10,912 nucleotides of DNA from a virus. Its lineage: Duplodnaviria > Heunggongvirae > Uroviricota > Caudoviricetes. The notes below the pieces were generated by a model. It did not search any database, was not told where the DNA came from, and saw only the letters and a program-made list of their open reading frames with translations. Of the stretch, positions 4,285 through 10,912 are shown in pieces; position 1 is the stretch's first letter, and each line of letters begins with the position of its first letter. Position numbers and translations under genes: made by a program. The stretch is taken from the IMG/VR virus record IMGVR_UViG_2667527592_000012. One strand, written 5' to 3'.

Positions 4285-7200
4285 TAATAACCTGCGGCTG
4301 CAGGTCATTCTTAATGCGGTTGACAAACTCACCCGCCCATTCCGTGCTGCACAGGCCAGTTCGAAAGAGCTGGCTGGCGCAATCAGAAACTCCCGTGACG
4401 CATTAAAGCAACTCAATCAGGCGGGTAACAGCCTGGAAAAATTTCGCAAGCTGCAGGCCGATAACAAGAAGTTAGGCGACAGGCTGAACTATGCCAGACA
4501 GAAGGCTAATTTGCTTAGCTCTGAGCTGGAGTCGATGGAACAACCATCACAACGGCACCTTGTGGCTTTAGGTCGGCAAACGCTGGCAGTCCAACGTCTG
4601 GAAGAACAACAAAAATATTTGCAGAAGCAAACGGCGCTTGTGCGTGCAGAACTGTACCGGGCGGGAATTTCTGCGAAAGATGATGCGGGAGCAACTGCCC
4701 GTTTAGCCCGTGAAACATCACGTTATAACCAGGAACTGTTGAAACAGGAGGCGCGGCTGAAGCGACTGGGGGAAGCTCAGCGCAGGATGAATGCAGCGCG
4801 TGCCAGTTATGCCCGTTCGCTGGAGGTGCGCGATCGCATCGCTGGAGCCGGAGCCACCACCACGGCTGCAGGGCTGGCAGTGGGGACGCCAGTGATGGCG
4901 GCAGTAAAAAGCTATACCAGCATGGAAGATGCCATGAAAGGTGTGGCAAAGCAGGTCAATGGTCTGCGTGACGATAATGGCAACCGCACTGCACGTTTTT
5001 ATGAAATGCAGGATGCCATCAAGGCTGCCAGCGAACAGTTGCCGATGGAAAACGGTGCGGTGGACTTCGCTGCACTGGTTGAAGGTGGTGCGCGCATGAA
5101 CGTCGCAAACCCTGACGACAGCTGGGAAGACCAGAAACGTGACCTGCTGGCCTTCGCCAGTACGGCAGCAAAGGCGGCAACAGCCTTTGAGCTGCCAGCG
5201 GATGAACTGTCAGAAAGTCTGGGGAAAATCGCCCAGCTCTACAAAATACCTACCCGCAATATTGAACAGCTCGGCGATGCGCTGAACTATCTGGATGATA
5301 ACGCCATGTCGAAAGGGGCGGACATCATTGATGTCATGCAACGTCTGGGCGGTGTGGCTGACCGTCTGGATTATCGTAAAGCGGCGGCACTGGGTTCCAC
5401 CTTTCTGACACTGGGCGCTGCGCCGGAGGTTGCAGCCAGTGCAGCAAACGCGATGGTGCGTGAATTGTCCATTGCCACCATGCAAAGCAAGAGTTTCTTT
5501 GAAGGGATGAATCTGCTGAAACTCAATCCTGAAGTGATTGAAAAGCAGATGACGAAGGATGCGATGGGAACTATCCAGCGTGTGCTGGAGAAGGTGAATG
5601 CTCTGCCGCAGGACAAGCGTCTGTCTGCCATGACCATGTTGTTTGGTAAAGAGTTTGGTGATGACGCGGCGAAACTGGCAAACAACCTTCCGGAACTGCA
5701 GCGCCAGCTAAAACTGACAGCGGGCAATGATGCGCTCGGTTCCATGCAGAAAGAATCCGACATCAACAAAGACTCACTTTCTGCTCAGTGGTTGCTGGTC
5801 AAAACCGGAGCGCAGAACACCTTCAGCAGCCTGGGCGAAACGCTGCGCCAGCCGCTGATGGATATTCTGTACACGGTGAAAAGCATCACGGGGGCGTTGC
5901 GCCGCTGGGTGGAAGCTAACCCGGAACTGACAGGCACACTGATGAAAGTAGCGGCTGTTGTGGCTGCGGTTACCGTAGGCCTCGGCACCTTAGCGGTGGC
6001 GCTGGCTGCAGTGCTGGGGCCGCTGGCAGTCATCCGTCTGGGATTCTCTGTGCTGGGTATCAAAACGTTACCTTCTGTTACGGCAGCAGTAACACGAACC
6101 AGCAGCGCGTTGTCCTGGTTAGCTGGCGCTCCACTGGCACTGCTGCGACGCGGGCTTGCTTCATCGGGCAACGCAGCGGGTTTACTTACTGCTCCGTTGT
6201 CGTCTTTGCGTCGCACGGCATCACTGACGGGGAATGTCCTGAAAACTGTAGCAGGTGCGCCGGTTGCACTGTTCCGGTCTGGATTATCCGGTTTACGTGC
6301 TGTTGCTGTGATGTTTATGAATCCTTTGGCGGTACTGCGCGGTGGACTGGCCGCCGCAGGCACGGTGCTGCGAGTACTGGCATCTGGTCCACTGGCGATG
6401 CTGCGCGTTGCCCTGTATGCCGTATCTGGTCTGTTAGGTGCTCTGCTCAGTCCGATAGGTCTTGTGGTTACTGCGCTGGCGGACGTGGCGCTGGTTGTCT
6501 GGAAATACTGGCAACCCATCACCGCATTTCTCGGTGGCGTGGTGGAAGGATTCAAAGCGGCGGCAGGACCCATCAGTGCCGCATTCGAACCGCTTAAGCC
6601 TGTGTTCCAGTGGATTGGCGACAAAGTGCAGGCGCTGTGGGGCTGGTTTACTGATTTGCTGACGCCCGTTAAGTCGACTTCTGCCGAACTGCAGAGCGCA
6701 GCGGCAATGGGGCGACGATTCGGGGAGGCACTGGCGGAAGGGCTGAATATGGTCATGCATCCGCTGGACTCCCTGAAATCCGGCGTATCCTGGTTGCTGG
6801 AAAAACTCGGCATTGTCAGTAAAGAGGCCGCAAAGGCGAAACTGCCGGAAAGCGTGACGCGTCAGCAACCTGCGACGGTGAATGCAGACGGTAAAGTGAT
6901 GATGCCATCGGGTGGTTTTCCGTCATGGGGATATGGCTTTGCGGGGATGTATGACAGCGGCGGCTATATCCCGCGCGGGCAGTTTGGCATCGTCGGTGAA
7001 AACGGGCCGGAAATTGTTAACGGCCCGGCAAATGTGACCAGCCGGAGAAATACAGCTTCACTGGCTGCCGTTGTTGCTGGAATGATGGGCGTTGCTGCCG
7101 CGCCTGCAGAGCTTCCACCGTTGCATCCTTTGGCACTTCCCTCGAAAGGCGGCGAAGCGATGGTGAGTCGTGCAGCCACTGTGCCGCCCGTTCAACGGAT

Positions 7201-7354: not shown

Positions 7355-7836
7355 TGATGGTGCTGGGATTGTACGTGTTTATGCTGCGCACTGTGCCGTA
7401 TCAGGAACTGCAGTATCAACGCAGCTGGCGACATGCGGCAAACAGCCGGGTCAACCGACGTCCGTCCATGCAGTTTCTGGGACCGGACAACGACATGCTG
7501 ACGCTTTCTGGTGTTCTTATGCCGGAGATAACGGGCGGCAGGCTGTCGTTGCTGGCTCTGGAGCAGATGGCAGAACAGGGAAAAGCATGGCCCCTGATTG
7601 AAGGCAGCGGCACGATTTACGGCATGTATGTGATTGAGGGACTGAATCAGACTAAAACGGAGTTTTTCCGCGATGGTATGCCGCGCCGGATTGAGTTCAC
7701 CCTGTCGCTCAAACGGGTGGATGAATCCCTGTCCGATATGTTCGGTGATCTCAGTGCGCAGCTGAATAATTTGCAGGATACGGCAACGTCTGCCTTAAGC
7801 GATATCAGTAAAACGGTGGGAGGGCTGCTGTCGTGA
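7351..7836 (+). CDS. U: Tail protein gpU (tail completion/terminator family)
   Basis: 161 aa; start overlaps the T stop (ATGATGATG; true start may be 7354 or 7357); position and size as in P2. Confidence 0.88.
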   Translation: MMMVLGLYVFMLRTVPYQELQYQRSWRHAANSRVNRRPSMQFLGPDNDMLTLSGVLMPEITGGRLSLLALEQMAEQGKAWPLIEGSGTIYGMYVIEGLNQTKTEFFRDGMPRRIEFTLSLKRVDESLSDMFGDLSAQLNNLQDTATSALSDISKTVGGLLS

Positions 7837-9001: not shown

Positions 9002-9220
9002 ATGATGAATTGTCCAAAGTGTGGTCATGCGGCGCACACAAGGAGCAGTTTTCAAGTAACGGAAAGCACCAAAGAGCGTTACTGCCAGTGCCAAAATATT
9101 AACTGCGGGAGCACTTTTGTTACCCATGAAACAGTGGTCCGGTTTATTGTGACACCCGCACTGATTGCTACTGCTCCTCCACATCCATTGCCAGGTGGTC
9201 AGGGGCATATGAATTTTTGA
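9002..9220 (+). CDS. ogr: Late transcription activator Ogr (Ogr/Delta zinc-finger family)
   Basis: 72 aa from ATG 9002: MMNCPKCGHAAHTRSSFQVTESTKERYCQCQNINCGSTFVTHETVVRFIVTP... with the C-x2-C...C-x4-C zinc finger; same length as P2 Ogr (recalled). AGGG 8 nt upstream. Confidence 0.9.
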   Translation: MMNCPKCGHAAHTRSSFQVTESTKERYCQCQNINCGSTFVTHETVVRFIVTPALIATAPPHPLPGGQGHMNF

Positions 9221-9227
9221 GAAAGAG

Positions 9228-9251
9228 AACCTGCTACGGCAGGTTTTTATT
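9228..9251. terminator. Intrinsic terminator after ogr, shared with the convergent cargo ORF
   Basis: 7-bp stem AACCTGC/GCAGGTT with 4-nt loop TACG followed by TTTATT on the + strand; overlaps the stop codon of the - strand ORF. Confidence 0.6.
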
Positions 9252-9729
9252 CATCTGGGATCTCACCCGTTTCAAGAAAATGTATAAAGCCAGGCTCATC
9301 TATGATGATTGTGCCTTTCATCCTGGCTGCCGATACTTTTGATGGGCCTGCATTGTAACCGCAACAGAGCATCTGAAGGCTTTGGGTTACAGAGGTTCTT
9401 ACCGTTAATCCTTGTTCATTCGCCTTATCAACCAATCTTTCTTTATCTGCTTTCTTAAATCCGGTGAAACACACATCGAATGTATTTTTTTTCGGACCAG
9501 ACTGCTTAGTGAGATGTGAGTAGTTTTCGGGGAGGAATGACGCGCATTCCTGAATGGCTTGTTCTGGTGAATCGTACTGTTTAAGAATGCGGTCTTTTCG
9601 GAAGGTTTTTATTCGATCGGTGTTCTTACAAATGCCCTGTATATGATTTTCGCTATAACTGATGCTCTGTATAGAGTGAACACCGATACGACCATTTGCA
9701 TTGATGTAAACAAAGTGAAGTTCTTCCAT
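9247..9729 (-). CDS. Hypothetical cargo protein, 160 aa; N-terminal WYL-like motif and C-terminal BRCT-like region (both inferred by eye)
   Basis: Intact ORF with AGAGG 6 nt upstream of ATG; visibly AT-rich relative to the flanking late genes. C-terminus FDVCFTGFKKADKERLVDKANEQGLTVRTSVTQSLQMLCCGYNAGPSKVSAARMKGTIIIDEPGFIHFL aligns by eye with the LigA BRCT domain; N-terminus ends in RIKTFRKDRI, reminiscent of the WYL-domain R-x-FR-x-DRI signature. Confidence 0.75.
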   Translation of the reverse strand: MEELHFVYINANGRIGVHSIQSISYSENHIQGICKNTDRIKTFRKDRILKQYDSPEQAIQECASFLPENYSHLTKQSGPKKNTFDVCFTGFKKADKERLVDKANEQGLTVRTSVTQSLQMLCCGYNAGPSKVSAARMKGTIIIDEPGFIHFLETGEIPDE

Positions 9730-9755
9730 GTGAAACCTCTTTGCATGATTTCAAG

Positions 9756-9794
9756 ATGGCGACAGGCAAGATGGACGCAAAAGTCTGTCGCCAT
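9756..9794. repeat. Perfect 10-bp inverted repeat (ATGGCGACAG ... CTGTCGCCAT, 19-bp spacer) in the cargo-gene upstream region
   Basis: Read directly from the sequence; an 8-bp direct repeat CAAGATGG occurs at 9752-9759 and 9767-9774. Confidence 0.5.
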
Positions 9795-9810
9795 TTTGCC
9801 GCCACTACCA

Positions 9811-9844
9811 AAGAAAAAGGGGCTACGCTTTCACGTAACCCCTT
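9811..9844 (-). terminator. Intrinsic terminator of ssrA, encoded on the prophage side of the junction
   Basis: On the - strand, 8 nt after the tmRNA 3' end: stem AAGGGG...CCCCTT with an inner 4-bp extension and 6-nt loop, followed by TTTTTCTT. Confidence 0.65.
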
Positions 9845-9852
9845 GATTTATT

Positions 9853-10215
9853 TGATGGAGCTGGCGGGAGTTGAACCCGCGTCCGAAATTCCTACATCCT
9901 CGGTACTACATGCTTAGTCAGTCTTTACATTCGCTTGCCAGCTGCGGACGGACACGCCACTAACAAACTAGCCTGATTAAGTTTTAACGCTTCAACCCCA
10001 GGCAGGGCTTCCACGCGATCTCTTTTGGGTTTGACCTCTCTTGATCCCCGTCCTAAGAGCGGAGGCTAGGGAGAGAGGGCTCTAAGCAGGTTATTAAGCT
10101 GCTAAAGCGTAGTTTTCGTCGTTTGCGACTATTTTTTGCGGCTTTTTACGAGGCCAACCGCCCCTCGGCATGCACCTTGGGTTTCGCAAATCCCGTCGAA
10201 TCCAGAATCAGCCCC
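9853..10215 (-). ncRNA. ssrA: tmRNA (SsrA), 363 nt
   Basis: The reverse complement begins GGGGCTGATTCTGGATTCGACGGG and matches the E. coli tmRNA sequence as I recall it through ...CCCGCCAGCTCCA; the terminal triplet reads TCA rather than CCA. Confidence 0.95.
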
Positions 10216-10229
10216 AATGTGTAACGGTA

Positions 10230-10262
10230 AGTATACCAGATTTATGAGCAGCATGACTAGCC
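10230..10262 (-). promoter_or_regulatory. Candidate ssrA promoter (-10 TATACT, weak -35)
   Basis: On the - strand TATACT ends 14 nt upstream of the mature tmRNA 5' end, consistent with a short processed leader; the -35 is poorly matched. Confidence 0.35.
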
Positions 10263-10429
10263 CAAAAGGCGTTATCATCCTGGAATTAGCGCCTGCATAG
10301 TATGATTTTTTTTCGATTAAGCAATGGGATGGCTACATCTGTGTCAGATTTGACAGTCGATAAGATGTTCATTCGCGCCACCGGATAGGGAGGCGCGGTG
10401 AGGATTTGATTAGTATCGCTTATATAGGT

Positions 10430-10912
10430 TTAACGGTGGGCATTTTTCATGATACGCGCTTTATCCACCTGCCATTCGCGTTCTTTGATATCTGAACGTT
10501 TATCGTGCTGTTTCTTACCTTTGGCGACGCCGATTTTCACTTTGCACCAGGCATTTTTCCAGTACAGGGAGAGCGCCACTACGGTATAGCCTTCTCGATT
10601 GACGCGACCGTACAATGAGTCCAGTTCGCGCTGGTTGAGAAGTAACTTGCGGGTACGGGTAGGATCGCACACCACATGCGTGGAGGCCACAGCCATTGGC
10701 GTGATGTTAGCGCCAAACAGAAATGCCTCTCCGTCGCGCAGAAGGACATAGCTGTCGCTGATATTGGCTTTTCCTGCGCGCAGGGATTTAACCTCCCAGC
10801 CTTGCAGGGCAAGTCCCGCTTCGAACTCTTCTTCGATAAAGTATTCGTGACGGGCGCGCTTGTTAAGCGCGATGGTCGCTGAACCAGGTTTATGTGCTTT
10901 TTTCTTCGTCAT
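10430..10912 (-). CDS. smpB: SsrA-binding protein SmpB (complete)
   Basis: 160 aa, [51 protein letters not shown]...; recognised as E. coli SmpB, directly upstream of ssrA on the same strand. The start codon is the last three bases of the window. Confidence 0.97.

Follow-up and report, generated by a model that had tools for sequence, protein, structure and literature searches.

The perfect inverted repeat upstream of the cargo gene of this ssrA prophage most probably consists of two opposed copies of a predicted 186-type integrase arm box, and would thus mark the ogr-side arm of the phage attachment site (attP/attR). It belongs to a known kind of recombination site, the 186-type Int arm sites, here in a phage lineage not characterised before. 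On the sequence comparisons presented below, the repeat does not appear to be one functional unit or a dedicated gene switch, and its perfect 10-nt symmetry is a by-product of two boxes that face each other.

The window, by which we mean the whole stretch of 10,912 nt that was analysed (IMG/VR record IMGVR_UViG_2667527592_000012), is the right end of a P2/186-like (Peduoviridae) prophage in ssrA. The tail genes T, U and D are followed by ogr, the cargo ORF and a 123-nt intergenic stretch with the repeat, after which come a terminator, the tmRNA gene and smpB (Table 1). The Cartapus and 500465-1 phages have DNA at this locus that is 98-99.7 % identical to that of the window, as do about 170 of the 5426 complete E. 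coli genomes; the ogr-side arm is carried by about 230 of these genomes and the cargo gene by about 170. [quoted passage not shown]

Reading of the sequence together with a repeat search confirmed both repeats of the original prediction, namely the perfect 10-nt inverted repeat (ATGGCGACAG at 9756-9765 and CTGTCGCCAT at 9785-9794, with a 19-nt spacer) and the 8-nt direct repeat CAAGATGG, whose units lie 15 bp apart from start to start. Their position between the cargo ATG and the terminator hairpin beyond ssrA is also as claimed. The inverted repeat stretches to 14 nt at 13 of 14 matches (9752-9765 and 9785-9798), and it is the only perfect one of at least 10 nt with a spacer of 3-30 nt in the window. 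At the scale of the whole window this is unremarkable, as 27 % of dinucleotide shuffles hold at least one such repeat; in the 123-nt intergenic stretch, however, one appears in 0.3 % of shuffles. The direct repeat alone is marginally beyond chance, with a rough estimate of ~0.05 for such a region.

The tandem doublet and the attachment site

The right arm of the inverted repeat is the first of two tandem TGYCGCCA boxes, which form a doublet with the layout TGTCGCCA-TTT-TGCCGCCA. Box 1 is unvaried in alignments A1 and A3. The block CTGTCGCCATTTTGCCGCCAC is likewise unvaried in the window, Cartapus, Yersinia phage MLG42, Fels-2 and SopEPhi (alignment A1), with all sequence to the left of it differing; in the same alignment, the left arm and the direct repeat are absent from MLG42, Fels-2 and SopEPhi. 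When phage genomes were searched by BLAST, the match to the cargo-less ssrA phages Fels-2, SopEPhi and RE2010 (96 %) began precisely where the right arm begins, at 9785. Klebsiella phages match at 88-90 %, and across these and the ssrA phages the homology starts at 9785 or 9779. The original prediction had proposed a comparison with the arms of related ssrA-integrating P2-like phages, and this comparison upholds the right arm, whose doublet is kept with or without the cargo gene in Fels-2, SopEPhi and the Klebsiella and Yersinia phages, whereas the left arm proves to be specific to one lineage.

More than 120 loci in IMG/VR were found to carry the doublet, and clustering reduced them to about 40 unrelated upstream contexts. 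In these contexts, the doublet TGYCGCCATTTTGCCGCCAC is followed by an integrase gene or by the 3' end of either ssrA or one of various tRNA genes; its invariance there is in part a matter of ascertainment, as the loci had been picked by the doublet pattern itself. In relatives with other cores that were selected by BLAST (613R3, RCIP0057 and 186), the pattern CGCCA-N6-CGCCA is kept. Three more exact TGYCGCCA 8-mers lie in the tail genes T and U, at 4896-4903, 6616-6623 and 7426-7433 (minus strand), and the window holds 6 such 8-mers against 1.25 expected; the isolated copies in T and U are probably coincidences of coding sequence.

In P2-like phages, at least two direct arm-binding repeats are found on each side of the core, and the arm consensus reads tgTGGaCa for phages of the P2 group but tgccGCCActt for those of the 186 group (Nilsson et al. 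2011, PMC3448106). The GenBank record of phage 186 gives 'predicted Int arm-type recognition sequences' with the consensus YAYCGCCAYTY. Boxes 1 and 2 as well as the inverted copy fit this 186-type consensus (tgccGCCActt / YAYCGCCAYTY). Each side of the core has two or more direct repeats spaced by about one helical turn. Those on the ogr side lie in the window with a spacing of 11 bp, and those on the int side, which fall outside the window, were taken from the near-identical Cartapus and CFSAN061761 and from MLG42, where a second doublet, TGCCGCCA-AAR-TGYCGCCA, stands about 95-100 bp to the int side of the core (attP of Cartapus and MLG42, attL of CFSAN061761). This arrangement is conserved with the type of integrase, whatever the flanking cargo or the specificity of the core. 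The int gene itself also lies beyond the window, and we infer its type from phages and genomes that are 98-99.7 % identical at the locus. The integrases of Cartapus and MLG42 have the N-terminal residues W11, E14 and Y16, as in 186, in contrast to Y/D/R in P2; these residues have been proposed as discriminators of the arm type in a study that treats SopEPhi and Fels-2 as ssrA integrators and lists them with the 186-type integrases (PMC3448106).

Table 1. Features of the ogr-side attachment arm and its surroundings in the window (Int, integrase).
Feature	Position	Strand	Remarks
ogr (Ogr_Delta)	~9002-9220		
Bidirectional terminator-like hairpin	9228-9245		T runs on both sides; shared by ogr (plus) and cargo (minus); left edge of cargo module
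Cargo gene	9247-9729	minus	160 aa, BRCT-like C-terminal half; module ~9246-9784 includes left arm
Two CAAGATGG direct-repeat units	9752-9774 (9752-9759, 9767-9774)	+	Seen only in window-type lineage
Inverted arm-type box TGTCGCCA (11-mer TGTCGCCATCT, 9764-9754)	9757-9764	minus	Exact consensus match; core of left arm of inverted repeat
Degenerate inverted box TGCGTCCA	9772-9779	minus	6/8 matches; inside second CAAGATGG unit; read from sequence
Int arm-type box 1 TGTCGCCA (11-mer TGTCGCCATTT, 9786-9796), predicted	9786-9793	+	Core of right arm of inverted repeat
Int arm-type box 2 TGCCGCCA (11-mer TGCCGCCACTA, 9797-9807), predicted	9797-9804	+	11 bp after box 1
Phage-borne intrinsic terminator	9817-9844	minus	12-pair stem and T run; kept in attP of Fels-2 and Cartapus
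Candidate IHF site AATCAAGGGGTTA (consensus WATCAANNNNTTR)	9836-9848	minus	Exact consensus; between arm boxes and core
Segment common to attP and attB (ssrA 3' end)	9853-9897	none	45 bp; crossover inside
tmRNA (ssrA)	9853/9856-10215	minus	

The terminator between the doublet and the core ends the transcription of ssrA in the lysogen and, by analogy with 186, may end that of the cI-int operon in the free phage. Matches to the IHF consensus number 2 in the window against 0.32 expected; the candidate site near the core overlaps the 3' stem of the terminator hairpin. The 45-bp ssrA segment is present at both prophage ends in CFSAN061761 and in the attP of Cartapus. The region can therefore be read as holding all the predicted parts of an ogr-side arm in a 186-type attP.

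In the mechanism that we propose, boxes 1 and 2 would be the conserved doublet in the attP arm next to ogr (named 'P arm' in P2), which is part of attR here. The N-terminal arm-binding domains of Int would sit on this doublet, one helical turn apart, IHF would bend the DNA at its candidate site, and the catalytic domains of the doublet-bound Int would be brought to the core, which lies at the ssrA 3' end. In this way, an intasome would be assembled that serves integration and, with the participation of the int-side arm and Apl, excision as well. The left arm would be a supernumerary inverted box that comes from the cargo module and may take a further Int protomer, but would not be required.

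Several features of the neighbourhood of the core deserve mention in their own right. The window has TTTGATGGAGC at the 3' end of ssrA (9853-9856), with a change at 9855, and the encoded tmRNA ends in ...GCUCCA-UCA in place of the usual -CCA. The equivalent position is a G in all 84 related IMG/VR loci, and no perfect match to 9780-9960 occurs among the 5426 complete E. coli genomes, the best being 99.4 %. The change reflects a sequencing error or else a private mutation, in which case the 3' end would have to be repaired by the CCA-adding enzyme. In the related elements of Cartapus (L004, 3288-4493) and CFSAN061761 (L127, 1-8813), there is a second cargo gene between attP and int, which encodes a RES-domain protein in the former and a hypothetical protein in the latter. 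In CFSAN061761, a P4-like satellite with integrase, psu and ogr/delta-like genes adjoins the attL of the prophage, and both elements lie in tandem at ssrA.

The inverted third copy

The left arm of the repeat belongs to the exchangeable cargo module. Both the inverted box and the direct repeat CAAGATGG are found only in a cargo group of 93-100 % identity, the window/Cartapus-type E. coli lineage, and the left arm was not found upstream of cargo homologues that are 59-74 % identical (MLG42-type, L193 and L200). The repeat as a unit is thus not conserved with the same cargo gene, and on this point, which had been named beforehand as a ground for refutation, the original prediction does not stand. 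Where relatives have a third box, it is usually direct and lies at -11 or at -19 to -21 (9/40 contexts). Inverted boxes are limited, among the 40 contexts, to the window type (-29) and L115 (-62), that is, 2 of 40 against 0.19 expected; they occur in the 186 lineage besides, and in none of the 17 members of the 613R3-like set. This is suggestive at most of a general enrichment of inverted boxes near doublets. As inverted copies are confined to the window type, L115 and the 186 lineage, and stand at different distances in these, the inverted copy is not a conserved element of the architecture.

Variation within the window-type lineage points in the same direction. SNPs affect 5 of the 33 positions of the left-arm/direct-repeat stretch versus 29 of the 483 positions of the cargo coding sequence, two or three left-arm variants break the CGCCA core, and none of the left-arm SNPs is compensated in the right arm. 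In one natural variant, TGTCGCCA is changed to the 186-type TATCGCCA, which still fits the 186 consensus. Such polymorphism indicates that selection on the left arm is weak or absent. The inverted copy is therefore a real copy of the recognition sequence that is nevertheless dispensable, given that most relatives are without it, and that is weakly constrained, if at all. Owing to its exact match to the consensus and to the similar prediction for the inverted box of 186, the left arm can probably bind Int. In sum, the integrase arm site that the original prediction had listed among its candidate roles is strongly supported for the right arm, by the conserved doublet and the 186 consensus, and is the best reading of the left.

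It is possible, although unlikely, that the right arm is an Int box and that the left arm arose by chance in the cargo leader, through drift or a local duplication, and is unused by Int, which would leave the palindrome without a role. The 59-74 % identical homologues speak for this explanation, as all of them have kept the length of the leader without the left arm, and so do the higher SNP density relative to the coding sequence and the variants with a broken core. Moreover, most 186-type arms have the doublet alone, and the cargo leader holds an imperfect 15-bp tandem unit. However, the probability of finding an arm-type 8-mer without mismatch on either strand of the 55 nt that precede the right arm is only ~0.002, and here the match to the consensus extends to an 11-mer with its flanks. 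In addition, phage 186 has a comparable inverted box that was apparently counted by its annotators, and the TATCGCCA variant still agrees with the 186 consensus.

Two weaker candidates for inverted boxes lie closer to the doublet. The degenerate inverted box at 9772-9779 is part of an inverted repeat of 82 % identity (9772-9782 / 9794-9804); it is weak and may have originated by chance. A degenerate proximal inverted box that could be the homologue of the one in 186 (TGGACGCA here and GGTGGGCA in MLG42) has 5-6 of 8 matches, and we did not rely on it.

The cargo gene and possible roles of the repeat in its expression

The cargo protein has a weak likeness to BRCT and LigA C-terminal domains and PADLOC gives PDC-S48 as a candidate. 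All of the homologues found (59-100 % identity; L178-L204) occupy the same place in the same orientation, with a start 47-59 nt from the arm doublet, and one of them (L200) belongs to a tRNA-integrating phage. The cargo gene and its homologues share the orientation of int and of the host ssrA or tRNA gene, follow closely after the terminator, and show no detectable sigma-70 promoter. The spacing, the co-orientation and the lack of a detectable promoter suggest that the cargo is expressed by read-through of the terminator or from a promoter hidden in the arm. It is conceivable, but improbable, that the att arm doubles as a control element for the cargo, in that Int on the facing boxes, or an RNA stem, would tune the read-through from ssrA or int as a roadblock or a stabiliser. 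If this were true, a promoterless cargo gene would be read from the very highly expressed ssrA in lysogens, or from the int operon after infection.

The original prediction had placed the repeat where the promoter of the cargo gene should be and had offered an operator and a leader hairpin as further roles, and neither a promoter there nor these roles found support. As a palindromic operator at the cargo promoter, the repeat would be bound by a dimeric regulator such as CI, Ogr, the cargo protein itself or a host factor. Its location 27-65 nt upstream of the cargo ATG would suit this role, and in KplE1, where protein-binding sites in the att arm lie over the overlapping attL/intS promoter, such sites can double as operators (PMC2951348). 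In KplE1, however, the regulated gene is int and the regulation has been proven experimentally, whereas here the neighbour is a cargo gene for which a sigma-70 scan of 9100-10500 found no upstream promoter, with poor hexamers at best when inspected by eye. The half-sites are not conserved together, since the right arm occurs without the cargo and cargo homologues occur without the left arm; joint conservation upstream of homologous genes, overlapping a promoter, is what an operator would be expected to show. Nor is there a motif similar to ATGGCGACAG in the cI-apl switch region of a near-identical prophage, an Ogr-type late-promoter site (TGT-N12-ACA) in the sequence inspected by eye, or a recognisable DNA-binding regulator domain in the cargo protein. 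The direct repeat does share one TCAAGAT half-site (9751-9757) with ATCTTGAaTCAAGAT, a perfect palindrome in the spacer of the pR-like promoter of the same near-identical prophage (L127 9463-9491; TTGACA, 17 nt, TAATGT), where it is likely to be the CI operator. This half-site is not enriched, with 7 copies in 34.7 kb against ~4.2 expected, and a CI operator at the repeat was accordingly rejected as weak. An operator role of any of these kinds is therefore highly improbable.

The repeat might instead form a hairpin in RNA, either in the 5' leader of the cargo or in read-through transcripts from ssrA or int, where it could stabilise the RNA, be a site of processing or act as an attenuator; this too is highly improbable. 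A read-through RNA would indeed hold the repeat, as the cargo gene shows no clear promoter and follows ssrA in the same orientation, as it does int in the free phage; the stem is also thermodynamically feasible. However, the fold of the sense (minus) strand is weak and ambiguous, with a z score of only -1.8 to -2.5 and a minimum-energy structure that pairs with box 2 rather than as had been proposed, and the best hairpin (z -4.3) belongs to the plus strand, which looks untranscribed; this strand is antisense to the cargo, and the hairpin lies beyond the ogr terminator. No U-tract follows the stem on the sense strand and the left-arm SNPs are uncompensated, so that neither the stable stem with a U-tract nor the covariation expected of an intrinsic terminator or a structured leader was found. 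Homologous leaders do not keep the stem, that of the MLG42 homologue folding differently, and the search of Rfam gave no match to the repeat, tmRNA being the only family found. We also considered whether the direct repeat might bind a recombination directionality factor (Apl in 186, Cox in P2), and rejected this. Apl sites comprise at least three direct repeats 10-11 bp apart on the int side of the core (PMC7498355; 186 and P2 records), whereas CAAGATGG occurs only twice, 15 bp apart, on the ogr side.

Related attachment sites and significance

The opposed integrase arm boxes that we favour have their closest counterpart in phage 186. The two sites share the CGCCA box core with Y-rich flanks, an 11-bp tandem doublet on the late-gene side, an int-side doublet, a minus-strand terminator and an IHF site, here a candidate one, between doublet and core, and a core at the 3' end of a tRNA-like gene; in the 186 record, a minus-strand 'predicted terminator of lysogenic operon' is listed, and this feature and an IHF footprint both fall between the core and the sites on the B side. 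The ogr(B)-side arm of 186 also has an inverted box, AAGTGGCGGTA, just outside the direct doublet, which is kept in 186-like contigs and is the exact reverse complement of one of the int-side boxes of 186. The annotated range in the 186 record starts at the last base of this inverted box, and the record counts '3 sites to left', where only two direct matches are present; on these grounds, the annotators probably included the inverted box among the three. The differences lie in the distance from the inverted box to the doublet (7 nt in 186 and 21 nt here), the core (ileY tRNA in 186 and ssrA here), the boxes (YAYCGCCA in 186 and TGYCGCCA here) and the cargo gene, as 186 has none between B and attP.

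From 9785 onward, across the terminator and into the ssrA core, the attP of Fels-2 and SopEPhi is 96 % identical and has the same doublet. In these phages, however, there is no cargo gene, the ogr terminator abuts the arm, and the third box is direct (TGCCGCCA at -19), so that no palindrome is formed. In P2, the annotated Int P arm (ogr side) and P' arm are similarly doublets of two 8-mers separated by 3 nt, and an IHF site separates the P arm from the core, but the box is of the TGTGGACA type, the N-terminal Int residues are Y/D/R rather than W/E/Y, and the core is not in an RNA gene. A search of the literature for the motif strings returned nothing relevant.

For a common family of E. coli ssrA prophages, this analysis fixes the ogr-side Int arm, which is of value for annotation, and it places the end of the cargo module flush with the arm doublet at 9785. 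In the engineering of 186-type integrase/attP tools, the arm boxes must be retained, which gives their position some practical use. The repeat also calls for caution in more general terms, as a perfect palindrome beside an att core can be two facing recombinase boxes. A new biological question would arise only if the inverted box modulates recombination or the expression of the cargo.
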